A stretch of 53,022 nt of DNA, filler included, from Stramenopiles sp. TOSAG23-6 (lineage: Eukaryota): NCBI GenBank assembly GCA_900128565.1. It is 3 parts of 3 records of this genome, joined end to end, with 100 filler letters (N's around TTAATTAATTAA, not from the genome) between each part and the next. Parts side by side here need not be neighbours in the genome. Positions count along the whole stretch, not along the records: positions 1 to 17,734 come from LT636076.1; 2 more parts are not named here. One strand, 5' to 3'. Positions 1-51,334 of this stretch are shown here, in pieces. The position numbers were made by a program, and so were the translations under genes. Each line of letters opens with the position of its first letter. The first letter of the stretch is position 1. The notes under the pieces were generated by a model. It was not told the DNA's origin, did no database searches, and worked only from the letters and a program-made list of their open reading frames with translations.

Positions 1-717
1 GCACAGTCAGCTGGAGGAGAAGCTGTGTCACTTAGTAATGAACTTGAAGCTACTAGAGCTGCTGCTGCTGCAGCTAAAGTAACTTTTGAAAATGAAAACA
101 CAATTTTGCAACGTAAGGTCGATGAATTAAGAGAAGATATTGAAAAAATTAAACGTGAAAATCATCAATCTCAGAAGGATACTACAAAAATGCATGAAGA
201 TACAATCGCTGCAGAGTTGAAGGCAGCCAAAGCTACATTTGAAGAAAATAGAAAAGAAATTGAACTATCCTCCGCTGAAGCAGAAGCAACTCTCAAAAAC
301 ACGATTACAAAGTTAAAAGATGAATTGTCAAAAGCCGACACAGAGAAAGAAAAAAGGTTTCAAGAAAAAGAAGTATTCGCAAAGGAGAATGAACTCTTAT
401 CTCGATCAGTTCAAAAGTTAAAATCAGAATGTAACGAAGTAAAATTAGCACTTACCACCGCTCAAGAAAGAGAAAAAACTGCAGCACAGTCAGCTGGAGG
501 AGAAGCTGTGTCACTTAGTAATGAACTTGAAGCTACTAGAGCTGCTGCTGCTGCAGCTAAAGTAACTTTTGAAAATGAAAACACAATTTTGCAACGTAAG
601 GTCGATGAATTAAGAGAAGATATTGAAAAAATTAAACGTGAAAATCATCAATCTCAGAAGGATACTACAAAAATGCATGAAGATACAATCGCTGCAGAGT
701 TGAAGGCAGCCAAAGCT
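1..717 (+). repeat. Intragenic direct repeat, period 483 nt (1..234 = 484..717)
   Basis: GCACAGTCAGCTGGAGGAGAAGCTGTG..GCAGCCAAAGCT occurs twice, apparently identical; the peptide SLSNELEATRAAAAAAK..AAKA is duplicated. Confidence 0.9.
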
Positions 718-3700
718 TCATTTGAAGAAAAACGTCGTACAATGAACACCCAACATTTAGAATCGTTGACAAAAGCAAAAACTTCGTCCTCAAAAGCTTT
801 GGATGATCTTCGTGAAAAAAATGTGTTGAAACTCCAAGAACTTCAAAGTAAGCACAATCAGGAATTAGAAAGTATACAAAAGTCACATTTATCTTCTGTC
901 AGTAAATTGAAGGAAATTCATGTTTGTTTTCATTGTTCATTTCAATTTCAAATTTATTAATTTTTTTTCTACCAAACGTAAAACCTAACAAATTGTAAAT
1001 GTAAGACACATTTTTTCACTAATACATGCTACTGAAATAAAAGCAAAAGATAAATCGTATACTGCAAGTAAGCAACATGAAACAGATTTGAAATTGGAAC
1101 TCGCGAGAGCAAAAGAAGCTCATGCTACACTACAATCATCTATCGAAGAAAAACATACAAAAGAAATGGATTTGTGTAAGTTGAATCACATTGCAGCATT
1201 GTCAGCGAAGGAGAAAGAATATTCTTTGGCATTAGCCGGTAAGAGTGATGCTATGAATGCTTCCCATTCTACACAAGTAGCAATTGCGGAAGCTCAACGA
1301 GTTTCTGCAGAAGAAGCTCAACGATTATCCGAGGAAGAGCTCACAACTTTAAAAAAGGATTATATTGTGGTCGAAGAACGTGCAATGACAGCAGAGGCAG
1401 AATTGGGCGTCGTTCGTGGCGAACGGGATACTTTTAAATGTCGTTATGAACAAGAAGCTGCGAAGCAACAGTCCCGTTTAAATGAGGCTGCTCAAACACA
1501 AGCAGCTGGAATTAAATCGGAGCGACATCTGAAGGAAGCTTTGGCAAAAGTTAATGAATTAGAAGATATGGTAGAATTGTTAACTTTAGAGAAAGAAGAG
1601 TGCATTGTTGAAAAAGAAGTCGCCGAAGAAGAAACAGCTGATAAACAAACTCGAGTTGAAGAACTAGAAGCTGAGCTGCTCGCTACAAAAACAAATCAAC
1701 AACAAGTAGCAATGTCCGTTGGATCTGGGAATGATCCTGATATACAGGCAATCACCACACAAAATCTTCAACTTCGAGAAGCATTGGGAAAGTTACACAC
1801 TCAGACGACTGCAAAAAAAGCAAGTGATGGTCGTATAATTCGTGATTTGGAGCGGAAAGTTGAATTATTGGAAAAGTTGAAATCTGAAGTTGAAAATTTA
1901 CGAAAAACGAAAAAACAAATGGAAACTGAAATGTCTGAGTTACGCGATATGGTTGACGAATCTGCTGCGTATGAAGAGTTAGTAGAAGATCTTTCAGAAA
2001 AGAATCTTGAGCTTGGTGACCGTGTCGCTGAGCTTGAACAAGCTGTGAAAGAAATGGAAGAAATGGCCGAAGTCGCTGATGAAACTGATGAAATGCAAAG
2101 AGAATTAGAAATTGAATTACGTGCAGAAATTTCAAAAAAAACGGAGCAGTTGCGTTTGCTTGTAGATAATTCTGTGCAAATGAAAAAAGAAATTGAAGAT
2201 AAATGTGATACTCTCGAACAATTTCGGTCTGCTCTTACAGCACTACAACTAGATCGCACTAATCTTCATGAACAAATGACAACTGTTAAAGATGGAGAAG
2301 CGCAACGTGAAGAGAAGATACAGGAAGTTCTGAGTGATCAGATGAGTTTATTATCTATCAAACATCGAGAAAGGCAAACGTATATTCAACTTGCAATGTG
2401 CCAAGTGGAGCTTTTAGAGGCAGAAGGACGCGCATCTCAACTTCAAGCATATCTTCCTCGTGAGTTGATTCAACGAGATATTCCATCATTGGAAATTTTA
2501 TTGTTGTTGGAGCGTTTATCTGGTAAAGTTGAGGTTTTTCTTTCAAAAGTGAATGAATATTCTGTGTCTCCAAAGCGAATTGAAATTGAGGTTTCATCTG
2601 GAAGTATTGGTATCGAAGAGCTTCAAAAGCTCCGAGATGGTTGCACCATTGGTGTGCTTCTCTTGAAATTGCAGCGAGGTACGACGATGATGAATAATCT
2701 TTTGGTAAACCCAGAAATGAGTATTGAATTATATGCGTCTCTATCTTCCGAATGTCGTCGTCCATTTACAGATGCGGAGGTTGTTGTAGATCAATTGCTT
2801 GCAGCTTTAATGGAGGGAATTCCTTCATTACATTTAAAAACTGAGTTAGATCGTGTGATACTTGGTATAGAAAAATTTATCTCAGATCATCAAAAGACAT
2901 TTGATAGCGTCAAAAGAAAACAAAATGTTAAGACTCCATCCCTTTTGAAATCTTCTTCTCTTCATGTGTTGTCTGCGACTGCTGGTTGTTATATTGGGTT
3001 AATTCGATTAAACAAGAATGATGAAATGTTACCACCAGGAGATGATGTAATGCCATTTATAGTACAAGCAAAAGACTTATTGCAATCTTTGAAAACTGAA
3101 TATATTAGTGTTTGGATGGAAGCGGTTCGCTTATCTCAATTGATAAAAGTATCGAATCGTTCTGATCAACTCTTTGTGTCACTATTATCGCTCGTATTAG
3201 AAACTCATCGCTTCGCTTCTTTGATGAATGATGCAGTGAATAATATTGTTAGTGGTACGGACAGTGATACTGGCTCTCCAAGTTGGAACATATTATTGGA
3301 AGACATTGGGAAATTAAATGACTCTGAAGTCACTGAAGAGGAATGTACCGATTTGAATGAAGACAATGAAAATAATGTTAGTGCACGTAAATATTGTGCC
3401 GTTGTACAGAATCGATTAAAACTACTCGCCAGTGAAATATCAAAGTTACAAGGTGATGCTATAGAGAGTGAAACTCAAACACAAAAGAAAACACAAAATT
3501 TGGCTCCTTGGAAACAACGCGCTGTTCGTACGAGGAGTAATATCGCCCAGGTTAGCACAGTCCAGTCGCAACTAGAAGTAGCAAACAAAACGATACAGAA
3601 TCATTTGAAGGATCTTCGTCTTGCGGAAAAATCATCACGGAAAAAAAATGTTCAATTGTCACGACTTGAAGGCCAATTAGCTGAGGCTGCAAATCTTACT

Positions 3701-4584
3701 ACCGAAGTAGCTGATTTGAAAGTAAAATTGGATGAGTCAATAAAAACATCCGCAGCCGAAGCAACTCAGTCAGAAGTTGCAATGCAAGCTCTTAGTGAAG
3801 AACTGGAAAATTTACAAATAAATAATCGCTCTCTCCGTGGAAAAATTAAAGCTGCAGGAATTACTGATGATACAGAAATATCAAAGGATGCACTTGGAGT
3901 TCATCAAAATCAAAACGGTAATGTATCAATGAGTGAGGCTCAACACCATGCGATGTTTGCAGCAATTCAACATGTTGGCAAGCAGTCCGCTAGATGGCGC
4001 CAACTTGCAACAAAATCAATGTTGTCTAAGTTACCACCTCTTCCTGCGCCTGTTAGAGCTGTACAAAGTCCATCTACTGTAGTACATCAGGCTTTGTCTG
4101 AAGTTCAGTCTTTACGAAAAGATTTGATTAAAAAACGAGCTGGTGCTAAGGTAATAGNTTTATNAAAAAGANATNCNAAAAACNATCTAGCTTACGTCAA
4201 CAAGTGAGTAGAAGAGATAACCAAGATAAGAAATTTCATAGAAATATGTCATATTTAAATATGGAATCTAAAATATCTTCAAAAGAATGGTGGATTCAAG
4301 AACAAACTCAGGCTGCGCAACTACTAATTCGATTTGATAAGGCAAAAACCAATGTCTGTAAAATTATTCGGAAAGTAAAGAATAAAAATGGATACACAGA
4401 TACGTTCCCTGCAGCTAGTTTTCCTGTTGATACAATGATAAATTCTGAAGTTTTGAGGAAAAATAAAAATTGTCCAATTATTGGAAGAGTTCGAATACCA
4501 TCATCATCTGCTAATTCACACGTGCTTCCGCTGACTGTGGATAGGACTGTTTTAAATCATCTCCATTTACTGTTGACAAAATAA
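1..4584 (+). CDS. DCTN1: Dynactin p150Glued, 5' partial; join(<1..921,1028..~4184, frameshift at ambiguous bases, ..4584)
   Basis: Coiled coil with p150 motifs LTLEKE..VAEE, QNLQLREALGKL, ELRDMVDESAAYEELVEDLSEKNLELGDRVAELE. ORFs 25..960 and 1088..4207 join in frame on removing 922..1027. The C-terminal ORF 4204..4584 is offset across Ns at 4158-4184. Confidence 0.85.
922..1027 (+). mobile_element. Non-canonical repeated intron, degenerate copy (GT..AT, 106 nt, phase 0)
   Basis: CAT|GTTTGT..ACCTAAC..AATACAT|GCT; removal gives KEIH-ATEIK in frame. Confidence 0.75.
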
Positions 4585-4701
4585 AAAATAACATCACATG
4601 GAGTTTTCTAGTATTGTTTTTGGAATACATTTTATATTACACCGCGTAACAAAACATATAATAAAAATCTTTCAAATTATAGTTTATACCAAAGAAAATA
4701 T

Positions 4702-5607
4702 CTAGTCATTAAAGAAAACAACCATAACTGTAATATTGTCACTACTGCCTGCCTCTAGAGCAGCATCCACTAAAGCCTTTGCAACTAGTGACTCCTGTGG
4801 TTTATTCAGAAAAGTATTTTTCACTATGTCAATCGCCTTCTGGTCACTTATCACATCCCACAGGCCATCACACGCCAATATCATAAATTGAGAATTTTTA
4901 ATACACATATCCTTCATGTATGGGCGAGCACTTACGAACTGTTTGAGCCCATGATCACCAAAACTACGCGAAACTGCAAGCATCCCCAACACTCGGTTTC
5001 GCAATACAAAGCCTCCAGCTTCAGTGATTCTTTTATTCTCACTTTCATCTGATGCCTTGTGATCATATGTCATGCGAATAGCTGTACCATCTTCAGCAGC
5101 AACTACAATCCGAGCATCACCAACGTTTGCACAATATATGTGGGGATTTCCTTCTTCGTTTTGTGTTAAAAAACAAGTGATTGCTGTACAGCCAGAGGAC
5201 ATTAGACCTGCCTTACGGGACATTATATCTGTTACAAGATACGCACAAGTTTGGCGATCTTCCATACTTCGGCTTTCGTCAAAAGCAAGCTCTTTCTGAA
5301 AATTATCTGCCAAATACTTTGCTACAAATTCTACTACACCACGACCACCGTGTCCATCATACACACCAAAAAACCCATCTGTAGCAACTCCACCATATTC
5401 ATCTTCAACTACATGTGCATCTTCCATAGTAGTACGACATTTTGCATTCATTGTATCTGCTATATACGTAGCTCGAACACATTTCCATGATGCTTTTGAT
5501 GGATGGTCTCTGATCATGTTAGGCGAGAGAGCAATAATGCAGTTCTCGAATCTCGAGTGTTGGTTATACTTATCCAATGAGGAAGACCCAAAGGTTTGAA
5601 GTGCCAT
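4702..5607 (-). CDS. Protein phosphatase 2C (PPM family)
   Basis: MEDAH, GVYDGHGG, ANVGDAR, DHK, LAVSRSFGD, LACDGLWDV, GSSDNITV motifs. Confidence 0.95.
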   Translation of the reverse strand: MALQTFGSSSLDKYNQHSRFENCIIALSPNMIRDHPSKASWKCVRATYIADTMNAKCRTTMEDAHVVEDEYGGVATDGFFGVYDGHGGRGVVEFVAKYLADNFQKELAFDESRSMEDRQTCAYLVTDIMSRKAGLMSSGCTAITCFLTQNEEGNPHIYCANVGDARIVVAAEDGTAIRMTYDHKASDESENKRITEAGGFVLRNRVLGMLAVSRSFGDHGLKQFVSARPYMKDMCIKNSQFMILACDGLWDVISDQKAIDIVKNTFLNKPQESLVAKALVDAALEAGSSDNITVMVVFFND

Positions 5608-5773
5608 CAATCAGATCAGCGCGGTGACCCGGGTACAAAAATTACTGAAGTCAAGCCTGACCAAGGAACTCACAATAATTATTGTGTTTCTTTGCTTCTT
5701 CTTCTTCGTTCTTCTTCACTCATTCTCTTCGTTCGGACCTAAGCAGAATTTCACAAAGCACAATTCTTTTACA

Positions 5774-6793
5774 ATGAATTATGAAATGAATTATGAGTCT
5801 AATGCGGCAACGAAGAAGAAAAGGCATACAAGAATGGCATTGTTATTCGCCGTATGCCTATATGGGGCTGCTGCAATATTATTGGGCATTGCAAGAAGTA
5901 ACGGGGTTGACCAAGATGAGTTATTCAATAAAACCAAGGCCGACTTTGTCCATAAAAAAAATAAGGGTATGGACATAGCCAATCACGACTACAACCGTTG
6001 GAAGGAGAATGATAAGTTCAACCATGTAGTGAAGGATTATCAATCTGTAATTCAATATGTTGGGTTTGGTGTCGGACTTCTTCTTACGCTGGTCGGTCGT
6101 CGCTTTTCCCCAGTTGCTCTCTTCACAGGTGGATTCGTGTTGTCTTCATTCGTATTGTACCATACACTTCAATCCCAGATGATCAATGGATCTTGGGCTC
6201 ATAGTGCACCATTCGACAAGTTGTCAGCAAATGGACGAGCACATCTTTCGATCATTTTCTCGGGTGCTATCGGTCTTTTGACAGGAATTCTCTGTGTCAT
6301 TTACAGAAAAGTTGGTATGGCAAGTGTTGCTGGTTCAGTTGCCTTCTTCACTGGTGTTTTCGCTTTTCAGTTTATTCTTACGCCTCATATTCCTGCAAAT
6401 TATGATTGGGTAAATTACTTCGAGTATGTGATTGCATTCTTTCTTGCTCTTTCTGTGTTTGTATTGACCTACAAGTTGAACAGATTTTTACTGATTTTAT
6501 TGACAGTAACTTTCGGGTCTTTTATGGTTTTATTTTATGGGATGAGTATTTTTTCTACCAAGCTTAGTGATGAACTTAACACTTACGCTTGGAGAACACG
6601 AAAGTTTCACCACTTTGACAAAAATTGTAAAAATTTTCCAGTCTTTCTCGGAACGCTTCTTGGTACCTTTTGTATTGGTTTGATGAGTCAGTTTGTCATT
6701 GATCCATATATTTCGGAGCAATGCGGTACGCCTAAAAGGAATTCTAACAAGGATGTGCTTATTGAATCAGATAATCAAATTAACTTTGTGTAA
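5774..6793 (+). CDS. Multi-pass membrane protein, TMEM198/DUF4203-like
   Basis: About 8 hydrophobic segments; GLLLTLVGRR..FTGGF and ILLTVTFGSF patterns; first ATG at 5774. Confidence 0.6.
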   Translation: MNYEMNYESNAATKKKRHTRMALLFAVCLYGAAAILLGIARSNGVDQDELFNKTKADFVHKKNKGMDIANHDYNRWKENDKFNHVVKDYQSVIQYVGFGVGLLLTLVGRRFSPVALFTGGFVLSSFVLYHTLQSQMINGSWAHSAPFDKLSANGRAHLSIIFSGAIGLLTGILCVIYRKVGMASVAGSVAFFTGVFAFQFILTPHIPANYDWVNYFEYVIAFFLALSVFVLTYKLNRFLLILLTVTFGSFMVLFYGMSIFSTKLSDELNTYAWRTRKFHHFDKNCKNFPVFLGTLLGTFCIGLMSQFVIDPYISEQCGTPKRNSNKDVLIESDNQINFV

Positions 6794-6852
6794 AAGGAAT
6801 TCTAACAAGAGTGTGCTTATTGAATCAGATGNTCAAATTAACTTTGTGTAAA
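6734..6852 (+). repeat. ~58 nt tandem duplication of the CDS end into the 3' UTR
   Basis: AAAAGGAATTCTAACAAG..TGCTTATTGAATCAGAT..TCAAATTAACTTTGTGTAAA occurs twice with few mismatches. Confidence 0.85.
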
Positions 6853-7038
6853 TGTTTTCATAGTGGTTACTAGTGACATGATTTGAAATGTGTATTTATA
6901 TATGCACAAATTTTACCTAACTAAAAATAAAAATGTGTTGTACAAAAATCTTTACAATGAAGAAATAAAATAATTCGTCTAAGAATGTTTTAAGATTTTA
7001 TTCATTTTTGTTGATTTTCTAACTATACCATCACTATA

Positions 7039-9032
7039 TTAAAAGCAAGAAAGAAAAGGAGATTTATTTTCACCTTCCTCTTTTTCAAATATTGCACGAG
7101 CATCCTGTAACTCAGAGAATGGAATGTCTCGTCCTTTGTCTTCTGCATTTCCTTCGCCTTCGCCTTTTCGCATATTTTTAATTCGCACACACTGTTTCGA
7201 CCATTCATCCGGTGCTACATATGCACAATATGTTGCACCAGCTCTATCAGCATATTTGAATGCTTTTTTCGCATCTTTCTTTGGTTGTAACATCAAATCA
7301 ACAGTTGCTCCACCAGACCGTAATTTTGCCGCAATAGAAACAGCTGCTCCAATCATCTCTTTTGACCGAGGGGCAACACAGAAATCGACAGTTCTGGGTA
7401 AACTCGGCATAAGATTATGATCTTTTAGTAACTCCATTATGACACAGTCACCAAACCCAAATCCAACACATGGAACCACTTTTTTAGATCCATAAAGAGT
7501 TAATAACTTATCATATCGGCCACCACCACAAATAGCTCTGAGCTCACCGCGTCTATCGAAACATTCCCAAACACATCCAGTATAGTATGCTAAGCCTCGA
7601 ACAACTGAAGCATCAAAGACTAGATAATCATGAAAACCGTACGATTCTGTATTATAAAAAAAAATAAAATGAAATTGTAAAAAAAATGAGTACGCCGTTT
7701 GAAATAATAATAATAATAAATACACAATGAACAATGATTGTAAATAGATGGAGCGCAATAAAATTAGACCCACATCATACCATTTAAATAGTCTGTGGGT
7801 CCACTCAACATGCGCTAACTTAATGTATGCATCACTAGTAAGTCGATTGTGTATATGTATTTCACTATTCACTGGATGCACTGAAGCCTCACGGTGAACA
7901 ATGTCATACGACACGTCAACTGTCGCAAATGTAATGCAATTGTTGATTTGTTTCAACACCAATATAGAAAAACAAAAAACTAATTACTATGAAATAATTA
8001 GTAGTATAACGTACCTGCAAGAGTAAACAAAAGCTTCAATTCTGAAAGAGCTTCATCGTCAATCATTTCTCCAACTGTTGACTCTAGTTCTTCGATCGAT
8101 TGCGCCTCGAGAGCGCAGAGCATGTCATCTGAAGTTTCAGAGGGAACACCTACTTCGATTAACATTTCCTTTACAGCATCTGCACCAATTTTATCTAACT
8201 TGTCAATGATTACACAGACAGGTGCAAACATTTCATCACTAATTCCATAACTCTTCATTAGGCTTCCAAGAAATTTTCTAGAGTTAATTTTGATGCCGAC
8301 GATATCTGGACCAACCCCAAGACCGCGAAAAAAGGCACATATTGAAGCAAGTAGTTCTAATTCTGCCATGATACTGTCATCCCCTACAATATCCATGTTC
8401 CACTGATAATGTTCGCGCTTGCGTCCCCGTTGACAGCACTCAAATCTCCAACACTGTGCGACGCAAAACCACTTAAAGGGCAAAAGATCCTTAATTTCCC
8501 CAGTGGCCGTCTCTTGACGAGCCATAACCATACGTGCTAAAGAAGGCGTCATTTCAGGACGTAAAGTAACAGCTTTCCCATCTTTATCTGTAAAAGAGTA
8601 CATCTGTTCTGTAATTTCTTCTCCTGCTTTGCGTTTGTATAGCTCCTGGTGTTCAAGCACTGGGGCGTCGTATTGTGAAAAACCAAATGCGCGTCCAACT
8701 TTAGCAAAGTGCTCAAAAAGCCAATTGCGAACACGCATATCTTGAGGAAAAAAGTCACGCGTACCACTTGGAGGATCTAAATAATATGGTTTTACTTCAG
8801 TCATTACAGCTGCAACAATTCCTTTTTCAATATTTTTGTTCGAGAGCTTTTTTTTTGTGACACCGAGGCGCGTGCGAAGTGAATCAAAGAAGATAGTTTT
8901 AGCCTCTTTTTGGGCAGGTAACACTTTCATCTGTTCAGGTGTAGGTTTGCCTTTGCCAGCGTAGTCACACATGGCGACAATTTCGGACCATTTGCGACGC
9001 TCATCAGCCGTTACGACTAATTCTGTAGTCAT
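7039..9032 (-). CDS. HARS1: Histidyl-tRNA synthetase; join(9032..8015,7646..7039)
   Basis: PPSGTRDF, LRPEMTPSLAR, QRGRKREHYQWNMDI, VRGLAYYTG, GGGRYD, GFGFGD and an anticodon-binding domain; one canonical intron. Confidence 0.95.
7647..8014 (-). other. Canonical GT-AG intron (368 nt) in HisRS
   Basis: GCAG|GTACGT..AATACAG|AATCG restores LFTLAESYGFHDYL. Confidence 0.85.
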
Positions 9033-9175
9033 TCTTACACTAATGTATTGACCTTTCAATGTTGTTCGGGCTAACACAGCGAGAATCTTCCGAGAATCTG
9101 ATAATAGTAGCTAATGTGAACAGAATAATGCACGCGTGGTGAAAAAATGAGCTGAACCACCAATTTCATTTCAAA

Positions 9176-9188
9176 AACCCTAACCCTA
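9176..9188. promoter_or_regulatory. Telomere-like (AACCCT)2 motif in the divergent HisRS/kinase promoter
   Basis: AACCCTAACCCTA; TGACGTCA palindrome nearby at 9212. Confidence 0.45.
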
Positions 9189-9411
9189 GCGCGAGTAAGA
9201 TCAATATATTGTGACGTCATTTTACAATTAATTTATAGTCATACATGAATCCATCACAACGACGTTCTCGACGCGAGAGAGCAGCTGAATGTATGCGTGA
9301 GTCTAAAGTTATAGCTGTCTCCTCCTACATTTTCGGATTTCGATTGGACACGATGATTGAAAGTGTCTAAGGTATTATTTTAGACGAATAGTGGCGTCTT
9401 TGACGTTAAAT

Positions 9412-11090
9412 ATGAATACGGGGCCTCCGCCCCAGCAGCCGAAAGTGCTACCAGCAGATATAGTTGTAGTCAAGGTCGAAGCTCCTCATGGTGATAAGTA
9501 CTGCTTAAGTTCGGCTTCTGGTCGAATTTATTGGCCTTATAAGACATTAAAAGATTGCATTTATGGTAAAGTCAAAGCAGCAGTTGAATTAGTTCAAAGT
9601 CCCGATGAACCCGGTGTTTTTAATATTACCAAAACGTATGTTGCTATTAAACTTATTCATAAAAAGGGGGCGAATATAGGCCTTCCCATTTCAACAAAAA
9701 TGTTTACGTCCCACGCTGAGAATCCTGTCACAGAGACGGCATATCAACAATATCTATCAACCCCTGGTTATCCATACGTGGCAAAAGTTGTTGAAGCATG
9801 TGAAAATGCTGAGGCAATGTTTGTCGTAATTGAGTACTGCAATCAGGGCGAATTGTTTGATGTGGTACAAAGTCGAGGACACCTCGACGAGAAGCTTTGT
9901 AAACGCTTGTTTATGCAAATTGTGCTTGGTGTTCATTATATTCATAGTAAAGGAATTGTACACCGTGATTTGTCTCTTGAAAATGTCATGGTACACAACG
10001 GAGATGCAAGAATTATTGATTTTGGGATGGCTACTCCACTTCCAGCTGATGGTCTTTTAGAAGGTTTCAGAGGTAAAGTATATTATATAGCGCCAGAGGT
10101 ATTTTACCATAGATATTTAGGAAAATACAAGGGTCCACCGATAGATGTATGGGCCCTCGGCCCCATGCTTCATATTATGCTCGTTGGTGCTCCACCTTGG
10201 GAAAAGGCTTGGGTACAAGATCAGAGATTTATCCGAGCTATCAATAATAAGCTACACGTCACACTGGAAGAATGGGGTGTGGAATTGTCTGAAGACTGTA
10301 TTAACTTAATGCAAGCTATCATGCAAGCTAAATTTACCCTTAAAATTAATCAAGGTAAAGAGGAACGTGTATATGTATGTTTTATTTTTTTTCAAATTCG
10401 AATTTTTTTTTTAGTAAATTTTGTACCTAACGATTTTAATTTTTGAAATATTTTTCCAAAATACATGGTTTAACTAATAGAAGGCTTTCTTTAGAAAGTA
10501 TTTTAATGCATCCATGGTTAGTACCCGTCAGAGATCTAATACCCACACATTTGCGCTGCGTACTAGAAGCCCCTCGCATATCCTCTGATAATGACAGTAC
10601 TATTGCATGTAAACCGAATATTTCTCAAAATGTTCAAAATATAAATGATGGTATGAGTAAAAATGTCGCCGCTGGTTCAGATGAAACTGACAGTGGTCCA
10701 ATCTTGCCGTTATTTAAATCACATTCTGCAGTTTTGCATGCAGTAAATACATTTGAAACTATTGAAGATCTGATCTCGCTAATCAAGCGTCTTCCCCCAC
10801 CAGTTAACCCCAGTTTCCGAAAGATGTTAATAAAATTATTGGCTAATCATGATATGAGTGTTGTGACAACAAGAGGGAGAGTTCGACAGCTTTTGATTGT
10901 CATTGTTGGTTGTTTGGCAGACATACAAATATATAAAGGTTGGCTAGAGCAGCGAAAAGTAGAAGGTGCTCTTAGTCAGAATCAAAATACTGGCGAAGAT
11001 CTTTTTACTGGTGTTGACGAATCAGATAGAGTATTAATGCTTCAACGGTGGATTTCGTGGCTTACTCGCCGGCAAAACATTTCCACTTGA
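9412..11090 (+). CDS. CAMK-like Ser/Thr kinase; join(9412..10374,10467..11090)
   Basis: VAIK, HRDLSLEN, DFG, YIAPE, DVWALG; subdomain XI RRLSLESILMHPW is recovered after removing 10375..10466. Confidence 0.9.
10375..10466 (+). mobile_element. Non-canonical repeated intron (GT..AT, 92 nt, phase 0)
   Basis: TAT|GTATGT..TTGTACCTAAC..AAAATACAT|GGT; restores the kinase C-lobe frame. Confidence 0.85.
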
Positions 11091-11146
11091 TAAATTAGTA
11101 ATTTGTACTATTTTTATAATTTTTTTTATTTATAATATAACTACCT

Positions 11147-13960
11147 TTAGAGTTCATGGATGTCTTGATTTGCGTTTTTTGAAAACAGATAACTCTCAAT
11201 CAAAACATAATCCAAATCCTTCAATTCATTTAACAATTGTAGAGCTTCCATAGCTCTATTTATGATAGGTCTACCTTTAGTATTAAATGAAGTGTTGCAT
11301 AACATTGGAAGCTTTGATGGTATACGTCGTCCAACTTCTTTCAATAACGAATAAAGCCAAGGCTCATCCAAATTTGTCACAGTTTGTGGACGGGCAGTTC
11401 CGTCATAATGCCATATCGCAGGTGCAAGTTGCTCCATTTCAGGTTTCAATCGTGGCGCAAAAGACATGAATGGAGATACAATAAATGAATCAGGTTCATC
11501 GAATACCAATGAAACACTGTCTAGAGTTAAAACAGGTGCAACAGGTCTCCACCATTCCCTAACTTTTAATCGATTAAGGCGTTCTTTCATGCCTTTCAAA
11601 GGTGCAGCTAACAAGCTCCTGTGTCCTAATGCTCTAGGTCCAAATTCCTGTCTTCCTCGAATGACTCCTACTATACTTCCACCTACTAGAATATCAGCGA
11701 GATCTGATACTTTAACCTTGACTGCATTATATTCATTTGCTATACTTTCAAGAGTTTTTCTTGGGTGACTACTCATTGAAATAGTTTTGTCTTTCCAGAT
11801 AAGATCCATAAGTTTGAACCCAACATATGCTAAATGTTGATGTGATATGAATTGTCTGTCTAGATTTTCATCTTTGCTAATCGTATAGTTTTTAGGTGGT
11901 TGATGCATCCAAGCAAAACCTACAGCCAATCCACCATCCCCTGGTGCTGATGGGACATGTACAGGAAGTTGAAATTCGCGCCTTATGCGGGAATTTAATA
12001 AGACATTGAGTGCCCCACCGCCAGCAATAGCGATACCATCTACAATGATATGTTGTGAAGCTAATTGCTTAACAATCTGCGATATATGTGAAATGACTTG
12101 TTCTTCTAACGCGGTTTGAATAGATGTAGCCATGTCACGTTGTGCATAATTGCATGAATTGTGTTTTGATTTATCATTTTTTGAGTCATTATCTACATTT
12201 TTGCATCTAGGGTCTCTCCGTAATAAATCCATGATAGCTAGACCTGATGATTTGTTAGATGAACCAAGATTCATATCAGAAAAACCGTGACGAACCCATT
12301 TTTGTTTTAATATTTTGACCCAGTCACGTTGGCCATTCTTTTTTCCGAGAGCCGAAAATCCCATAACTCTCCCAGGTATATTTGATGGCGTCCCCCAACA
12401 CTTTCCACTCAATGATGTGATATTTCTAAGACTGCTATTTACATCAACGTTACATTGAGCCAACCTTTGTGAAATATTCATTTTTTTATCATCCGATTTA
12501 TCTGATAACGTAGACCCATTTACTAAAGGTAGTGTGTACCCCATCGCAGCATAAGCCATTGTTGATAAATGAACCTTTTCAACCAATGCTAATCCATCTA
12601 AAGCTATATTAGATATTCCACCTTGGATGATATTATCCCATGCCATTTTCGATCTTGAAGATTTATAGCTTTCATTGTTGAACATTTTACGCCCCACAAA
12701 GATTTGTGTAGGTGCCACAGTAGTGAATAAATTCTTATTCATACCGATTGTTTCACCGCCTAATCCGTCAAAAGCCAACACAATTGCTGTACTGAATGGT
12801 GAATCCCAAAATGCAAGTGCAGCATGTCCACGGTGGTGAGGTGCAACAACCCATCGCTTCACAGGCCATTTACTATGATTGATAAACCAAGAATGATTTC
12901 TATCAGCACCAACAACACCAATATCGAACTGATACACATCAGTTTCCTCTTGTATAGTTTTTAGCGCAAGATTCCAATCTGCGCGAAATGCAGCAATATA
13001 TTTTTCATATGATTGAGCATCATTCATACGATGGCGTGGTGAATAATAACGAACTCCAAACAATCTCTCTAGCTCAAGAACAGATAAAACTTTTCCATCA
13101 CACACAATAGAAATACTCGCATCATGCTCTGTCGAGCCGACACTTAGAATACAGTACCGTTTATTAACACTTTTCGTGTTATTATTAGTGTAGCTGTGGT
13201 AGAATGTAGGGGGTGGTCTAGAATCTGATAATTCCACAATGTTGGTTGAAGGAAATTTTTCTATAAACTGAGCTAAATTCTCTGGACTTTGTGAGAGTTT
13301 CCATATTGATGTTTTTTGCATTATATTCCTGATATCACTTTCATTTTTATTCCGTTGAAGATTTAGTAAACGGATTCCTGTATTTGATAATTGATTAGTT
13401 GCAGAGCGAGCGTTTTCATCAAATTCATGAGTTGACTTGGAGTCATTTGACCCAATTACAAGAAAGTCACTTCTAGCAATCCAAGGATGGAAACACGAGC
13501 CGTCTGCATACTTCAGCCATGCGCATAGAGTGTATGATCCCGGAGTTGCACTAAACAATGGCGCGGAACTTGATAGCTGTGCTTGTGTCATACAAGTTGT
13601 ATTTTGTACTTTTCCAGACGAACTGAGAGAACCAACACAAATCAAAACTTTCTCGGTCTGAAGCAACTTACTGAACCATTTTTTACGACCTGAAAATTTG
13701 ACATAAACAGACATTTTAAGTGGTATCTTCAATTGTTTTGTACGTTTTTCCTTATTATGTGCCTGATTGCACTCATTAAAAGTTTGATCACGTAGAAGTT
13801 CTTCTGAACACCCTGAACCATCTACAGAAAGGGATTCACCATCCTGTGGATTATCAAAGAAAACTACAACATCTAAAACATCAGGTGTTCCATTACATAT
13901 AACTTCGGCAAGTGCAATAGAAAATTGGGGAATCAATATAATGAATAAGAATAGATTCAT
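11147..13960 (-). CDS. Carbamoyltransferase, NodU/CmcH/TobZ family, with signal peptide and N-terminal extension
   Basis: HDASI..LELERL, HHRGHA, FDGLG, GRVMG, AGGGALN, PGDGGLAVG, GRQEFGPRALGHRSLLA, KVREWWRPVAP, HYDGTARPQTV, NTSFN; N-terminus MNLFLFIILIPQFSIALA. Confidence 0.9.
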   Translation of the reverse strand: MNLFLFIILIPQFSIALAEVICNGTPDVLDVVVFFDNPQDGESLSVDGSGCSEELLRDQTFNECNQAHNKEKRTKQLKIPLKMSVYVKFSGRKKWFSKLLQTEKVLICVGSLSSSGKVQNTTCMTQAQLSSSAPLFSATPGSYTLCAWLKYADGSCFHPWIARSDFLVIGSNDSKSTHEFDENARSATNQLSNTGIRLLNLQRNKNESDIRNIMQKTSIWKLSQSPENLAQFIEKFPSTNIVELSDSRPPPTFYHSYTNNNTKSVNKRYCILSVGSTEHDASISIVCDGKVLSVLELERLFGVRYYSPRHRMNDAQSYEKYIAAFRADWNLALKTIQEETDVYQFDIGVVGADRNHSWFINHSKWPVKRWVVAPHHRGHAALAFWDSPFSTAIVLAFDGLGGETIGMNKNLFTTVAPTQIFVGRKMFNNESYKSSRSKMAWDNIIQGGISNIALDGLALVEKVHLSTMAYAAMGYTLPLVNGSTLSDKSDDKKMNISQRLAQCNVDVNSSLRNITSLSGKCWGTPSNIPGRVMGFSALGKKNGQRDWVKILKQKWVRHGFSDMNLGSSNKSSGLAIMDLLRRDPRCKNVDNDSKNDKSKHNSCNYAQRDMATSIQTALEEQVISHISQIVKQLASQHIIVDGIAIAGGGALNVLLNSRIRREFQLPVHVPSAPGDGGLAVGFAWMHQPPKNYTISKDENLDRQFISHQHLAYVGFKLMDLIWKDKTISMSSHPRKTLESIANEYNAVKVKVSDLADILVGGSIVGVIRGRQEFGPRALGHRSLLAAPLKGMKERLNRLKVREWWRPVAPVLTLDSVSLVFDEPDSFIVSPFMSFAPRLKPEMEQLAPAIWHYDGTARPQTVTNLDEPWLYSLLKEVGRRIPSKLPMLCNTSFNTKGRPIINRAMEALQLLNELKDLDYVLIESYLFSKNANQDIHEL

Positions 13961-14324
13961 TGTGAGAATCAAATGGATATATTCACCGTATACTATACAA
14001 TCTTGTCGGCAGTCTACTATTTATAACTCAAATAATAATAATTTCATACACGTAGAAAAAATCTCGCAAATTCATTTTTTGAAACGTTTGAAATTTTTAT
14101 TTCGAAATCCTCGGAAATACCTTTTTTTTTTTTTTTTTTAATGACAAACCTGTTTTGAAGCAAATTTCAATTGCAATGCAAAATACCTCAAAATAATACG
14201 CAATGGCGCAATGCTGTTATATTCAGGTTACATTGGATTTTTATTGACACATCTGAAAACAAGTGTGTGTCTTTATTTTTCTAGTTTCATCATTTTTATT
14301 CGACGAATTGCACTTTGTAAAGCA

Positions 14325-17056
14325 ATGCCAAGGCGAGCTACTAGCATGAAGATTTATGGTCGGCGTCGACGAAAAAAGCAACAGCCTTTAAACAAGTATG
14401 TAACTACGTTAACTGCGTGTGACGCTTTTGACTCTCTGACACCTTCGCCAGCACCACCACCACTTAAACGAAGCCCCCTCTCCAGAGATCTTTCATCAAG
14501 GAAGAGAACTCCCGTCGTCATTCGAGATGATTCACTTGTCCCTGGACAATTGTTGTCTCCAAATTCCTCATTCCCAGTTTATATGGATAATAATATTGCA
14601 ACCCCGCAAACCCCCTCAAATAAACAGTTTCGGTACCCCAAAATGGCACCTGAGCGAAATCCCTTCGCACCGGAATTAAAATATTCACAACCGCTTCGCG
14701 ATCTGGGCCAACAGCCTCATCAATTAAGCAATAAGCCCATGTTAAACACTATGGATATGATTAATGTACTACGAAAAAATGGCGCACATTTATCGCGGAA
14801 ATACAAAGTTACCCCCAACAAGCTACATTCTCAACCTAGCAGTCAAGGATATACACAAGGAAACACGAAATCAATGAAAGGATATACACAAGGAAACAAA
14901 CGAAAGAGTCCGTTCACGACAAATAATTCTTTTCGACAAACTCGAAGTACTACAAACAAACGAAAGAGTCCGTTCACGTCTAACCCTAACCCTAATTCTT
15001 TTCGACAAACTCGAAGTACTACAAGACGACGACTTGAGAAATCTGCAGAGAATAATAATATGATGTCTAGTATACTACTCACACCTACGAAAAACACGAA
15101 AAAGAGTCGTTTGGAGATTCCCATAATCAATAAAAAAGTAACGCAAAACATTCAAAACATCCAAAACATCCAAAAAATGAAAATCGTCAAGAATTCAGTG
15201 AATTCAGACGATCCAATTCAAAATGATATCGAACAAATTATTATACCATCATCTATTGGTTCTATTGATCCAATTGATTCATCAATAATACAATCATCTA
15301 TTGGTTCTATTGATCCAATTGATTCATCATTGGTTGATTCGTCTTCGTTCTCAAGTAATCAAAAAAAACAAAAAAAAACATTACATTCAAAACCAGTTAG
15401 CTCCAGCACAACTCGGAGAACAAAAACAACTAAAACAACAAAAACAACAAAAACAACTAAAACAACTAAAACAACTAAAACAACAGTACAATCAAAAAAA
15501 AGAATCACAAAAAAAAAAAAGATTGAGTTTAATTCAAATGTGAGAAGAAATCATTTCAAAAAATGTAAATATCAATGGTCAGTTACAAAATGTCTTGATG
15601 GTTCAACGAAAGTTTTTGATTGGAACAACATGGAAAATTGCAGTACAACTTCGAATACAAAAAATGAAACAATTAAAGATTGGATTGTTCATGTACGCCA
15701 TATCATTTTTTTGTCTATATTTTTTTCGTACGAAATTTTGTACCTAATAACAAACATCTTGTAATATTTTTTCACAATACATGTACGCTATATCATTTCA
15801 TTTCAAATTGTTTTTTTTCCTGTGCATAATTCAATGTTTTGTACTTGAATTTTATACTTAATGAATTTCGAATTTGACATGTTTTTTTTCTATACAGAGA
15901 GGATTGTCGCCAGCTTTATCTACTCTATGGAATGCTCAACAAATGTATGTTTTATTTTATTTTATTTTTTTTTTCCGGTAAAAAAAAAATCGATTTTGGT
16001 TTTTATAAAAATTTTGTACCTAACAATTTTTTTTTAGATTTTTGAAATATTTTTCCAAAATACATTTTTGTGAAACTCAAAGATAAACTTAATACAAATC
16101 CAAGGTATAAAAGCATCAGGTCAAAAACTACCGGTGATGAAAAAAGGTGTGAAAAACGCATTCAACAATTGAAAGCTTTGAGAGTGAATATTGATCAATC
16201 ATGGCTCTATGGAGTGTTTAAGCTGGAAGGAATTTCAAAGATACAAAAAGAAGAAGAGATAGCTATAAAAACTTTGGAGTGTCCAGTGGAATTGCGCTCA
16301 GCATCGATCTGTTCATATGGTGGTGCATCCTCTTCAATACTATCTGAAAATTCACGTGTATTCTATATAAATCATATACAGAAACAAGCACAATATTATA
16401 AACGACAACATCAACAAAAACTGAATGTAATGTACAATAATACCGACATGACCAAAAAACCAAAGCAGCAGCAAAAACATGAAAATAAATCGAATGTTGG
16501 TTTGAGTAAGGAAATGAATCAAAGACAACAAATAAGAATAGAAAATGACTTTCTTGAAAAGAATTCGAATAAAAATGTTTATTCAAATACGCAAAACACC
16601 AATAAAAAGTCATTTTTTGATACTCCAGATCAAAATGAAAGCAAAACCAAATCAAATAGTTTTTTTTCTTCGTCACCTGTATTAGTCAATACAACACCAA
16701 TCGTAACATCAAGCTCAAATATAGAATCGAAAGAAATGATTGCAGATAAAAGAGATGAAAACCAAATCGTGCAATTACCTCTCAATGTATGTTTTATTTT
16801 TTTTCAAATTCGAATTTTGTTTTGTACGAAATTTTGTACCTAACAAATTTTATTTTTTTTTTTTAAATATTTTTCCAAAATACATGCCAATGTAAATTAT
16901 GCTAGTATTATAGAAAAGCAAAAAGTAAAAAACCAAAAAAGTGAAAATAAAATTATAGAAAAAACAATTGAAGAACTTAATTCGCCAATCAATGATCAAA
17001 ACCAAACGAATTCGGAAAGTTATAGTTATGGACATGATCCTATACGCTCAAGCACC

Positions 17057-17099
<43 letters not shown>

Positions 17100-17100
17100 C

Positions 17101-17131
<31 letters not shown>

Positions 17132-17650
17132 ACAGTATATTTGGAAGAGAAGAAGCAATCTTTGAAAACATTTAGAAAAAGAATGAAAAAGGTTTCAAAT
17201 GGTATAGATGAATTAGATCAGAAAGATATACAAATTTCACTACTATCTCACCGTCCTCGTATGATTGATAGCTCAACACAAATAATTACCAGAAAAAAAT
17301 CAGCAAAGACTCAAACTTGTGTAAAAACAGTCAATGCATCATCAAATACTAGTATAAAGAGCAATGCAGTAATGACTCAAACTTTTGTAGATACAGTCGA
17401 TACATCATCGAATACAATGACAAAGAGGAATTCTTCTGTGTATACGAATACAGATGTACGTTTTCAATTTCGAATTTCGATTTTTTTTTTGGTACGAAAT
17501 TTTGTACCTAACAATTGTTTTTTTGAAAATATTTTCCAAAAATACATGCTATACAACATGTCGATCAAAGTTGTAATACAACTCCTGTAATAAAACCTAT
17601 TATGAAATGTAACTCGACATGCACTGAACAAAAACAGTTTAAATGTGTAT
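14325..17650 (+). CDS. Uncharacterised low-complexity protein, 3' partial; exons 14325..15692, 15898..15944, 16066..16786, 16886..17455, 17548..17650
   Basis: Frame is continuous across all junctions when the repeated introns are removed; TTK repeats and poly-Asp; runs into the contig gap. Confidence 0.65.
15693..15782 (+). mobile_element. Non-canonical repeated intron (GT..AT, 90 nt) abutting a GT-AG intron
   Basis: CAT|GTACGC..TTCGTACGAAATTTTGTACCTAAT..CACAATACAT|GTACGC. Confidence 0.75.
15783..15897 (+). other. GT-AG intron (115 nt) related to the repeated family
   Basis: GTACGCTATATCATTT..TTTTGTACTT..TATACAG|AGA; frame continues RGLSPALSTLW. Confidence 0.7.
15945..16065 (+). mobile_element. 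Non-canonical repeated intron (GT..AT, 121 nt, phase 2)
   Basis: CAAAT|GTATGT..GTACCTAAC..AAAATACAT|TTTTGTG gives QQIFVKLKD. Confidence 0.8.
16787..16885 (+). mobile_element. Non-canonical repeated intron (GT..AT, 99 nt, phase 0)
   Basis: AAT|GTATGT..GTACCTAAC..AAAATACAT|GCC; contains an in-frame stop, so it must be removed. Confidence 0.85.
17057..17131 (+). repeat. (GAT)n microsatellite encoding poly-Asp
   Basis: About 25 GAT units with one GCT interruption. Confidence 0.9.
17456..17547 (+). mobile_element. Non-canonical repeated intron (GT..AT, 92 nt, phase 0)
   Basis: GAT|GTACGT..GTACCTAAC..AAAATACAT|GCT. Confidence 0.8.
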
Positions 17651-17734
17651 GTATGTTTTATTTTTTTTTTTGTATGATGTTTTTTTCGTACGAAATTTTG
17701 TACCTAACGATTTTTTTTTGAAATATTTTTCCAA
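17651..17734 (+). mobile_element. Non-canonical repeated intron, truncated by contig end
   Basis: TAT|GTATGT..TTCGTACGAAATTTTGTACCTAAC..TTTTTCCAA, then gap. Confidence 0.8.
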
Positions 17735-17834
17735 NNNNNNNNNNNNNNNNNNNNNNNNNNNNNNNNNNNNNNNNNNNNTTAATTAATTAANNNNNNNNNN
17801 NNNNNNNNNNNNNNNNNNNNNNNNNNNNNNNNNN
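17735..17834. other. Artificial contig spacer
   Basis: 44 N + TTAATTAATTAA (stops in all frames) + 44 N. Confidence 0.95.
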
Positions 17835-17930
17835 TTTTTTTTTTTACCAAAAAANTCGATTTTTTTTCGTACGTAATTTTGTACCTAACAAATTTTAGTT
17901 TTTTTTTTTAAATATTTTTTCATAATACAT
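17835..17930 (+). mobile_element. Non-canonical repeated intron, 5' end lost in the gap
   Basis: TTCGTACGTAATTTTGTACCTAAC..CATAATACAT|CTTCC. Confidence 0.8.
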
Positions 17931-19587
17931 CTTCCCATGATTCTGCTGAAAGAATTCCTCTTAAAGAAAGGAAGAACACAATCACTAGTTTTTCTCGTAG
18001 TGCTGCTGGTTCAACTGGTTTTTTAAATGCAAAGAACATAAATCCAAGTTTTTCTCGTAGTGCTGCTGGTTCTCCACCTCGCATTCGTCGAAATATGAAG
18101 AATACATCACTTCACGAAATTAGGGGACATGAGATTAAAACTAAAAGATCAAACAAAACATCTGGGTCGATGAGAATACGGCAGAGATTGACAAGGCAGA
18201 ATGTTCATCATCTTGGTACAGGTCCACGTTACCGCAGTATGTTAATGTACGTTTTCATCATGAATTTCAAATTTATTTATTTTTTTTGTATGAAAATGTC
18301 GTACCTAACGATTTTTTTTATCCACAAAAAAAAACAATATTTTTCACAATTTATTAACCCTGGTCGCAGTCTTGTATTTGGTGTTGGTGATCGTATATTT
18401 ATACTAGCGCAAAATGTAAGACAGCGAAATGATGTACTTGAATGGTGCACTGAAATAGAAGAAAGTGTTAGACGAATGTACGTTTCATATGAATTTCTAA
18501 TTTAAGTTTTTTTTTTCATACGAAATTTCGTACCTAACGATTTTAATGTTTGAAATATTTTTTCATAATCCATGATTTTGGTATCATTAAACATGTTGGG
18601 AATCCTGCGCTCATTGTCAAATCTATTAATGAAAAGAATATAAAAGAAGCGACTAAGAATATCTTTGGGACGGACCAGGTCACACTTTTACGAATAGTGG
18701 TAAAAACACTAATTGGTGGAAGCTCTGGTTATGTCATTGACCCACGAGAGTACTTAGGAGCACCAGAAACTGATAGTTTTTGTGCATTTTCTATTCCTAT
18801 GCCAAACACAGTAGCGTTTAAGGTCCAGGAAGCAACCAAACCACAGCGTCAACGGTTATATACTCCATACACAAAGACGATTAATAAACGTATGGAGACA
18901 AGTGAAGGTCATATGACTAGTTGGACCAACAAGCTTCAATTCCATGCATATTATTCATCCCTTCCAGGTACAGATCGATTTGATGTGTATTGGAAGAGAG
19001 ATGGAGCGACACGTAATTATTTCAAGTGTGCTCGTAAGGCCGCAGATCCTTGGGGTTGGTTCTTTATGTATTCATTTTATGCATATCCACTGGTTCGTAT
19101 TGACGTGTATAAATCACTGAAAACAGAACATACGTACTATTTTAGTGGTAGTGAAAAGATGACAAATATACCACCACCTGACCCTGAAGAATTTGAACAT
19201 GAGTTTTCATTCTATGCTCTACAATATCAAATGACTGGAACTATCAACTTTAACTGCATGCATACCGACAAAAGACAAGTTGGTGATGATCCGGGTATTA
19301 CACGATCACTTAGATCGCGATGCAGTTCCGAAGCACCACATTCCATATGGGAACATAACTGCCAATTTTATGCTTTTGATACACCAATACGGGGCACTAA
19401 TCGATTACAAATTCAGATATCTATTGATGACCCAGTAAGATATCGTATTACGCCAGAATTTATGATAAAAGGTCCATGGAGACATCTCAATACAGTTTAT
19501 GTTTTAGGAATTGTATCCCCAGATGCTGTAAAGTTTGCCCATGGTGCACCAGATCCTGGAAAAGCTTTGTCAGCACTGGTTTCATAG
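17931..19587 (+). CDS. 3' part of a gene with a BK/Slo K+-channel-like tail motif and an unknown C-terminal region; exons 17931..18246, 18355..18477, 18570..19587
   Basis: Spliced RYRSMLINPGRSLVFGVGDRIFILAQ resembles the RCK2 end of Slo channels (RYVITNP....L...D.IF.L). The family call rests on this one motif. Confidence 0.5.
18247..18354 (+). mobile_element. Non-canonical repeated intron (GT..TTTAT, 108 nt, phase 2, stop-free in frame)
   Basis: TTAAT|GTACGT..GTACCTAAC..CACAATTTAT|TAAC gives MLINPG. Confidence 0.75.
18478..18569 (+). mobile_element. Non-canonical repeated intron (GT..TAAT, 92 nt, phase 2)
   Basis: CGAAT|GTACGT..GTACCTAAC..TTCATAAT|CCATGAT joins to ORF 18550 (RIHDFG); the 3' end was chosen by frame. 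Confidence 0.65.
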
Positions 19588-35406: not shown

Positions 35407-35506
35407 NNNNNNNNNNNNNNNNNNNNNNNNNNNNNNNNNNNNNNNNNNNNTTAATTAATTAANNNNNNNNNNNNNNNNNNNNNNNNNNNNNNNNNNNNNN
35501 NNNNNN
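35407..35506. other. Artificial contig spacer
   Basis: 44 N + TTAATTAATTAA + 44 N. Confidence 0.95.
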
Positions 35507-35640
35507 TATACTAAAATATATTTACATTTATTACAAAAAACTACAGATTAAAAAATATTGTTTTCGATCTTTGACCTTCAACATTATTTTTATACGCAGA
35601 TATATATATACTAAAATATATTTACATTTATTACAAAAAA

Positions 35641-51215: not shown

Positions 51216-51334
51216 TACAAGATAAAAATAAATCTGATTGGAATCAAATCTTGCTCTGTATCATTCAGTGTATGACGTGTCTTATACACACACATAAATT
51301 ATTGTGTTGTCTCTTGTCTTTAGGCTATAGTCAC

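Follow-up and report, generated by a model that had tools for sequence, protein, structure and literature searches.

Two abutting, probable members of a putative introner-like intron family, one ending in AT and one in AG, in a marine stramenopile genome

In a 53,022-nucleotide (nt) stretch of DNA from Stramenopiles sp. TOSAG23-6 (assembly GCA_900128565.1; hereafter the window, which joins parts of three records, positions 1 to 17,734 being from LT636076.1), two intron-like units lie end to end within one gene. The first, I1 (15693 to 15782, plus strand), is a 90-nt family intron that begins GTACGCCATATCATTT, runs GTACGC...CACAATACAT and ends AATACAT. The second, I2 (15783 to 15897, plus strand), is a 115-nt diverged member that begins GTACGCTATATCATTT, runs GTACGC...CTATACAG and ends TATACAG. 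An earlier note on this DNA had described an AT-ending unit followed directly by a second unit with nearly the same start and an AG end, and the sequence bears out both the coordinates and the ends. Judging from sequence, the 205 nt probably (roughly 55%) represent two adjoining members of a transposon-like ("introner-like") intron family of high copy number; each would form a full splicing unit and be removed as a separate short intron. I1 would end in AT like the rest of its family, and I2 would be an older and more diverged member in which a final G provides a normal AG acceptor. The anatomy of the pair, its family membership, the requirement that both units be removed and the phase of the boundaries across the family are shown here, whereas the use of AT as an acceptor, the sequence of removal and the origin of the pair are inferred.

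Both units have to be removed if the gene is to be read through. The upstream exon (14145 to 15692, plus strand) is a 516-codon open frame that ends ...GTT CAT in phase 0. If I1 is retained, the frame halts at 539 codons, with an in-frame TAA at I1 codon 24; if I2 is retained, it halts at 537 codons. When I1, I2 and the copies at 15945-16065, 16787-16885 and 17456-17547 are removed at their aligned ends, 14145-17647 becomes one frame of 995 codons. The exon between I2 and the next family intron (15898 to 15944, plus strand, starting AGAGGATTG) is 47 nt long, and because this length is 2 modulo 3 it links the two long frames. A single 373-nt intron spanning 15693-16065, which would leave out the 47-nt exon, was also considered, and was rejected as out of phase with the flanking frames.

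I1 and I2 each have a GTACGC donor, a CTAAT/TTAAT branch-like motif and a family-type 3' end. The branch-site-like motif is TACCTAAT in I1 (15741 to 15748, plus strand; 34 nt before the 3' end) and TACTTAAT in I2 (15855 to 15862, plus strand; 35 nt before the AG), where a degenerate second copy, GTACTTGAA, is present at 15841-15849. The two units are collinear: their 5' likeness spans 37 nt at 76% with a spacing of 90 nt, the blocks around the branch site (15734-15748 and 15848-15862) agree at 87%, and the 3' blocks (15759-15781 and 15874-15896) agree at 74%. I2 has the architecture of I1, lengthened by about 25 nt in its central part. The closest agreement is at the start, where 15 of the first 16 nt are identical; together with the preceding CAT, this forms a 19-nt direct repeat with one mismatch. 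Its first copy, CATGTACGCCATATCATTT (15690 to 15708, plus strand), consists of exon CAT and the first 16 nt of I1, and its second, CATGTACGCTATATCATTT (15780 to 15798, plus strand), of the last 3 nt of I1 and the first 16 nt of I2. Exact matches to the 16-mer (Y at position 7) are confined in the window to these two starts, compared with about 1.1e-4 expected from base composition; at up to three mismatches, two matches were reached in 29 of 100 shuffles, so the count alone is unremarkable. A 7-nt repeat, GGATTGT, flanking the pair was judged to be due to chance.

At 15782/15783 the acceptor-side end of I1 abuts the donor of I2 with no exon bases between them (...CACAATACAT|GTACGCTATA), and this acceptor is AT rather than AG. 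Joining 15692 to 15783 regenerates CAT|GTACGC, as had been proposed. The comparison with recursive splicing that was drawn from this is apt for the zero-exon abutment; it does not carry over to the total length of 205 nt or the non-AG acceptor, and since the I2 donor is already complete before I1 is removed, no order of removal is forced. Three routes (I1 then I2, I2 then I1, or one 205-nt GT-AG step) lead to the same mRNA. The two units would most likely be spliced as separate short introns in either order, and a fraction of transcripts may lose the 205 nt in a single GT-AG step. If I2 were removed first, the AT end of I1 would precede AGAG, and the AGs 2 and 4 nt downstream could be competitors.

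Two known arrangements resemble this one, in the parts of the cited papers drawn on here. In the ratchet points of Drosophila (bioRxiv 10.1101/006163; PMC8605326), an acceptor likewise abuts a donor and the upstream exon meets a reusable donor, but those sites lie in very long introns and read AG|GT, whereas the present pair measures 205 nt in total, has an AT acceptor and consists of two homologous repeat copies. Fungal stwintrons (PMC12403724, PMC8469720, as far as these sources were used) similarly place two U2-type introns, often similar and duplicating, within one intervening sequence. However, their inner intron interrupts the outer donor, branch point or acceptor and so forces an order. 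I1 ends just before the donor G of I2 and interrupts none of the I2 signals; the pair is therefore not a stwintron.

The main rival explanation is that the 205 nt are a single composite GT-AG intron, formed when an element landed at the 5' edge of an existing intron; the donor at 15693 would then be used with the I2 branch site and the AG at 15897, and the AT of I1 would go unused. Such an intron has a canonical GT at 15693 and AG at 15897 and an in-frame product, an insertion in or at the edge of an intron would be harmless whether or not the element splices itself, and AG is a proven acceptor in the homology-fixed intron of the histidyl-tRNA synthetase (HisRS) gene of this window (see below). 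However, the donor hexamer, branch motif and 3' motif of I1 are also found in copies without a fallback AG. Additionally, 205 nt is well beyond the 88-121 nt of the family units, a range within which both 90 and 115 nt fall. A composite intron is regarded as less likely, while remaining the most serious competitor. Separate removal is favoured because short-intron systems pair nearest signals and because the 3' motif of I1 serves copies with no alternative.

The family to which I1 and I2 belong has the consensus GTAYGT...TTGTACCTAAC...AATACAT (in fuller form, GTAYGTTTTATTTTTTTTCAAATTCGAATTT...TTTCGTACGAAATTTTGTACCTAAC(G/A)A...GAAATATTTTTCCAAAATACAT). Its core motif has 22 matches in the window, compared with 4.2 expected, and none of 100 shuffles reached 22. 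A profile hidden Markov model (HMM) built from 15 copies gave 21 nhmmer matches with E<0.01 in the 53 kb, spread over about 7 genes, and 20 of these are in the sense orientation relative to the surrounding gene. I1 matches with an E value of 3.9e-12 and I2 weakly, over 15835-15886, with an E value of 0.087. These 20 matches, I2 and a copy found by eye at 38662-38558 make 22 sense copies (19 complete and three partial). The remaining match, at 35899-35945, covers 47 nt on the palindromic core and lies inside a minus-strand frame, and reading it as a sense fragment is at least as good. In every typical copy, two sequences on the 5' side of the branch-like motif are perfect palindromes, AAATTCGAATTT and TTTCGTACGAAA (for instance at 16800-16835), which explains mirror matches on the opposite strand. 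The degenerate family-like fragment at this place extends over 35899-35952 within the minus-strand open frame, has 18 identical bases (TAATGAATTTCGAATTTG) in common with I2, and may be a decayed or exonised copy. In an independent marine DNA run (X3), depth at family positions is 2,750-28,430, compared with 1.7-19 in unique bins; this is summed contig depth and not a copy count, and it suggests that the copy number of the family is very high.

When the 19 complete copies are aligned, all start with GT, 18 end with AT, and I2 is the only one to end with AG. The donors are GTATGT (10 copies), GTACGT (5), GTACGC (2), GTTTGT (1) and GTAATT (1), and across the family the distance between a CTAAC-type branch-like motif and the 3' end is 29-46 nt. 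By U2-type criteria, I2 has a GT donor, a CTRAY-type branch site and AG; I1 and 17 other copies have the first two and end in AT. An alternative AT..AC register was examined, in which 17 of 19 copies start with AT and 13 of 19 end with AC. It is less uniform than GT..AT and fails at the copies that end in TTAT or CCAT and at the copy preceded by GT. AT precedes 17 of the 19 copies (dinucleotide frequency, 0.096) and is repeated at both boundaries of 16, and the ends, ATGTAT...ATACAT, are inverted over about 6 nt. Because the AT repeat is identical across copies, target-site duplication is inseparable from target preference. The first exon base 3' of a copy is G in 10 of 19 cases, compared with a G frequency of 0.18 (p ~0.001), so the boundary repeat is often ATG rather than AT.

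If these aligned ends are those used in splicing, then removal at GT..AT should restore the flanking frames. Phases were taken from the long frames on either side of 16 complete copies, of which four were set aside as readable through in frame. Of the 12 informative copies, ten keep the phase when cut at the aligned GT..AT ends (p 5.4e-4). In contrast, an AG acceptor does not appear, from the open frames, to be a general way out for the family. The search for open-frame GT-AG alternatives was restricted to those that use the family donor, since an unrestricted search is too permissive (deleting codons creates no stops). For five of 14 copies, the family donor has no in-frame AG within 60 nt, and the AGs available to the others are located 9-57 nt into sequence that looks coding, apart from an internal AG 31 nt before the aligned end of the copy at 45770. 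The copy at 10375 to 10466 (plus strand) is near the end of a protein-kinase domain, its donor has no in-frame AG, and its removal yields a 545-codon kinase. The exon on its 3' side begins RRLSLESILMHPWL (GLTNRRLSLESILMHPWL), which fits the C-terminal Arg...HPW motif of kinase subdomain XI, and every in-frame GT-AG choice deletes its Arg.

Ordinary acceptors are also present. The HisRS gene contains a 368-nt GT-AG intron (7647 to 8014, minus strand; GTACGT...TTTATAATACAG), the only non-family intron established in the window. Homologues with 53-58% identity establish its junction, LA|ESYGF, as does the database protein P0009, which matches the HisRS exons of the window residue for residue apart from gaps. 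Introns of 35 or 53 nt at this site were ruled out, as homologues place the acceptor 368 nt downstream. The last seven bases are AATACAG in the HisRS intron and AATACAT in the family, and differ only in the final base; I2, with TATACAG, likewise ends in G. The suggestion that AT-ending and AG-ending members are a single base apart is thus supported by both introns, and the HisRS intron shows ordinary AG acceptors to be in use in this organism within that sequence context. The database model P0009 omits three conserved stretches, of 17, 6 and 11 residues, and therefore published models of this genome may be unreliable.

Several observations weigh against the reading of I1 and I2 as separately spliced family members with an AT acceptor. 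Frame tests set boundaries modulo 3 only, and at 16 of 19 copies the AT repeat lets the cut slide by 2 bases with the same mRNA, so that frames cannot part GT..AT from AT..AC. Two of the 12 informative copies, at 18478 (ending CCAT) and 45770 (ending ATAT instead of ACAT), fall out of phase when cut at the aligned ends. Phase is regained in each if the 3' cut moves upstream by 4 nt (AAT|) or the 5' cut moves downstream by the same distance, which suggests a second usable AT site or an unrecognised rule. At 45962 an extra A (45959-45962) puts the GT..AT cut one base out of phase, and removal in phase would need AG..AT or GT..TT. I2 is assigned to the family from short blocks and a weakly scoring HMM match. 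Past its first 16 nt, I1 resembles I2 no more than it does other copies, the body of I1 being closest to the copy at 45962, and a simple second insertion does not explain a 16-nt identity within otherwise dissimilar units. With respect to RNA, five RNA runs matched the stretch with small shares, and positions 6833-17734 were compared with four runs (X5, X6, X11 and X3), which are marine DNA and metatranscriptome contig sets rather than reads. Among the matches listed, none represented an RNA junction, an intermediate or a lariat of a family copy. The RNA libraries represent family and unique sequence about equally well; this is compatible with unspliced RNA or carried-over DNA and is no demonstration of splicing. 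A poly(A) RNA contig from the sea (X11, 193 nt) carries an unspliced family copy from another locus.

In that 193-nt contig, a family end, ...TCATAATCCAT, is directly followed by GTATGACATT; the copy may be a retained intron and is possibly another acceptor-donor abutment. The tables of junctions, loose ends and pieces from these runs are saturated by cross-matches between family copies, and are evidence neither for nor against splicing. No piece bridging 15692-15898 was found among the matches listed. The sole RNA joint listed (X11 record 3, 14833 to 14949) was rejected, as it lies between two direct exon repeats and lacks intron-like ends. Protein searches with the exon 16067-16786 for a transcript-derived protein across the junction gave no match.

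A second explanation is that the family is spliced by minor-type (U12-like) or otherwise altered machinery that tolerates GT-AT, in which case the tandem would be two such introns or one of each kind. The long conserved donor and branch motifs and the lack of AG are consistent with this possibility, and ATATCATTT, at +8 in both I1 and I2, agrees with the U12 donor consensus at 8 of 9 positions. However, a U12 reading of ATATCATTT is out of register, and its use in I2 leaves an in-frame TAG. GT-AT is a recognised non-canonical U12-type pair, rare among U12-type and very rare among U2-type introns (PMC1557818; Physarum preprint, both as consulted in part), and Sheth et al. 2006 (PMC1557818) list seven GT-AT U12-type cases and note experimental competence. 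Those cases are isolated or rare introns whose donors are of the TATCC kind and whose branch site lies about 10-12 nt before the end, whereas the present introns form a repeat family with GTAYGT donors and a branch-like motif at 29-46 nt rather than ~10-15. The TATCC core, and the U12 donor [A/G]TATCCTT (consensus as in the Physarum preprint), occur in none of the 19 copies, which have GTATGT, GTACGT or variants instead. An Rfam scan of the window gave no matches and thus no small nuclear RNA (snRNA) gene. A U12-like family is accordingly considered improbable. A U2-type spliceosome can handle non-AG 3' ends genome-wide, as described for Fritillaria borealis (Soo et al. 2026, PMC13326754, seen in part), although that case differs in being an animal with fewer than 10% GT/AG introns, altered 5' ends, duplicated U2AF subunits and changes in snRNA N6-methyladenosine (m6A).

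A third explanation is that the units are not RNA introns, but sequences excised at the DNA level, such as the internal eliminated sequences of ciliates, or disabling insertions in dead genes. The short direct repeat (AT) and the short inverted ends ATGTAT...ATACAT are in keeping with DNA excision, as is the lack of splicing evidence in the run contigs listed. In contrast, GTAYGT and CTAAC are spliceosomal signals, all 22 copies are in the sense of their gene, and about ten different genes retain long open exons around the copies. Furthermore, the standard code with frames of up to 1,820 codons is unlike a typical ciliate, and removal at TA boundaries misfits the TTAT and CCAT copies. This explanation is therefore very unlikely.

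It is equally far-fetched that the tandem is an assembly artefact, in which a repeat family misled the assembler and only one intron exists at the true locus. Copies of the family are very numerous, the N block at 17735-17834 falls at family copies, and a perfect 100-nt tandem and N blocks are found at 35407-35706. However, I1 and I2 share only 9+9 exact nt, which is too little for a loop in a k-mer graph, they otherwise differ in sequence and length, and both flanks run into unique exons in phase. The assembly duplication that the earlier note had raised as a possible refutation is consequently unlikely on sequence grounds, as the units differ strongly beyond their first 16-19 nt.

If I1 and I2 are family members, then their juxtaposition most likely arose when a second family element arrived at an AT|GTA junction on the 5' side of a resident intron, AT|GTA being the type of site that flanks almost every copy. 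I1 and I2 have in common a private 5' variant, GTACGCYATATCATTT, that departs from the family consensus at five positions, and for this reason a local duplication or conversion is proposed on top of the insertion. This event, affecting the first 16-19 nt, would have accompanied or followed the insertion.

The pair joins known kinds of structure, namely introners and zero-nucleotide exons. Introners have been described in Micromonas, Aureococcus, dinoflagellates and fungi as GY-AG families with direct repeats of 3-9 nt (Gozashti et al. 2022, PMC9860276, as partly consulted for this comparison). Like these, the present family consists of many near-identical short putative introns at unrelated positions, with a strong bias towards genes, in a marine protist. 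Similarly, repeats overlap the boundaries, splicing would restore the pre-insertion sequence, and one splice site would come from the element and the other from the repeat or target. The differences are that the repeat or target is AT here, so that the acceptor would be AT, and that the repeat is 2 nt long and nearly invariant. The ambiguity between duplication and target preference is described in that paper itself. Its main text, so far as it was available, makes no mention of tandem copies without an intervening exon ("tandem" has 0 occurrences) nor of marine stramenopiles (MAST) or stramenopiles, and its supplementary tables may list the family. A literature search pairing "introner" with "GT-AT" found no paper. 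In the main text of a single-cell genome paper on MAST-3, MAST-4 and chrysophytes (PMC5778133), introns are mentioned twice and splice sites never; its supplements may list the family.

Repeated non-GT-AG introns with boundary repeats of a few nt and inverted ends are also found in another marine protist, Amoebophrya (Farhat et al. 2021, PMC7789003, again from part of the source). There, RNA-seq supports removal, the boundary repeats are 3-5 nt, inverted repeats of 8-20 nt form hairpins, and there are no fixed terminal dinucleotides. The present family, in contrast, has inverted ends of about 6 nt, an invariant GT, and a yeast-like donor and branch motif. Folding of eight copies with their flanks gave z scores of -2.2 to +1.3 relative to shuffles, with an end-pairing helix in only some of the minimum-energy folds. 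As the copies fold no better than shuffles, a hairpin-defined mechanism like that of Euglena or Amoebophrya is unsupported.

The larger point, a reasonable interpretation of the sequence, would be the family and not only the pair. The non-AG end of the first unit is a hint that splicing in this organism can make use of an unusual intron end. In its broadest form, which we hold tentatively and at somewhat less than even odds, nearly every intron in these 53 kb would belong to one mobile family spliced GT...AT. The spliceosome, or a variant of it, would then need no terminal acceptor G, a single T-to-G change would convert a copy to the canonical form and back, and I1|I2 would be a natural zero-nucleotide exon, produced when one element inserted at the edge of another. 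Bursts of intron gain are at present best explained by introners, and the families described so far obey GY-AG. If true, the presence of an AT-ending family throughout the genes of an abundant grazer of the ocean would mean that a transposon can impose a non-canonical acceptor genome-wide. The AT copies, the one AG copy and the out-of-phase CCAT and ATAT copies would be a natural series for the requirements of the second step of splicing. The tandem pair would be the sharpest test object among them, with the same donor twice and AT and AG acceptors in one transcript, 90 nt apart. Additionally, gene finders that require AG would mis-model most genes of the organism.

The other copies are as follows. 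Downstream of I2, the next family intron (15945 to 16065, plus strand) is 121 nt long and runs GTATGT...AAATACAT; the plus-strand copies at 16787 to 16885 and 17456 to 17547 (the latter 92 nt) are in phase. Two partial copies occupy 17648 to 17930 (plus strand), one on either side of the N block at 17735-17834. Near the start of the window, the plus-strand copy at 922 to 1027 runs GTTTGT...TAATACAT, and its removal joins frames of 307 and 1,059 codons. Further copies on the plus strand are those at 18247 to 18354 (108 nt, ending AATTTAT; open in frame and thus uninformative) and 18478 to 18573 (ending AATCCAT; the first of the two out-of-phase copies). The second, 45770 to 45862 (plus strand), ends AATATAT and lies in a gene with a cullin N-terminal region. 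It is followed on the same strand by the copy at 45962 to 46068, in which the extra A falls between the flanking AT and GTACGT and the boundaries are uncertain, and by copies at 46134 to 46226 (ending AATTTAT) and 46397 to 46517 (diverged, GTAATT...AAAACAT, in phase). The plus-strand copy at 50748 to 50843 is 96 nt long and open in frame.

On the minus strand, copies at 37548 to 37636 (89 nt), 38793 to 38884 (preceded by GT and not AT), 39028 to 39117 and 39323 to 39410 (88 nt) are all in phase. The diverged copy that was found by eye, 38558 to 38662 (minus strand), runs GTATGT...CACAATTTAT, lacks TACCTAAC and is also in phase. The 3' part of a further minus-strand copy, cut by the end of the window (52973 to 53022), ends ...CACAATACGT before an SRPK-like kinase exon. 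Viral contigs searched with the family core gave no matches. A metagenome scan with the 16-mer gave 117 loci, none of them related to the window or the family.

The window as a whole is eukaryotic, with 27-41% G+C in 2-kb windows and standard-code frames of up to 1,820 codons, and its genes include a kinase, a cullin, a WD40 gene, a RhoGEF-FYVE gene and HisRS. The organism is an uncultured marine protist, and the source name attached to its best protein match points to MAST-3 stramenopiles. A 957-codon intronless frame at 11147-14020 (minus strand) encodes the N- and C-terminal domains of a carbamoyltransferase (NodU/CmcH type), which is unusual for a eukaryote, and may be a transferred gene. 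The first 248 nt of the window (1-248) are repeated perfectly at 484-731, with a spacing of 483 nt and within the first open frame; the repeat is either genuine coding sequence or a duplication made in assembly. The same gap block (44 N, TTAATTAATTAA, 44 N) is found at 17735-17834, where two family copies flank the block, and at 35407-35506, and the perfect 100-nt tandem at 35507-35706 directly follows the second block and looks like a scaffolding artefact. Short repeats of telomere type are also present, TAGGGTTAGGGTTAGGG between two genes (51283-51300) and CTAACCCTAACCCTAA within an exon (14985-15000).

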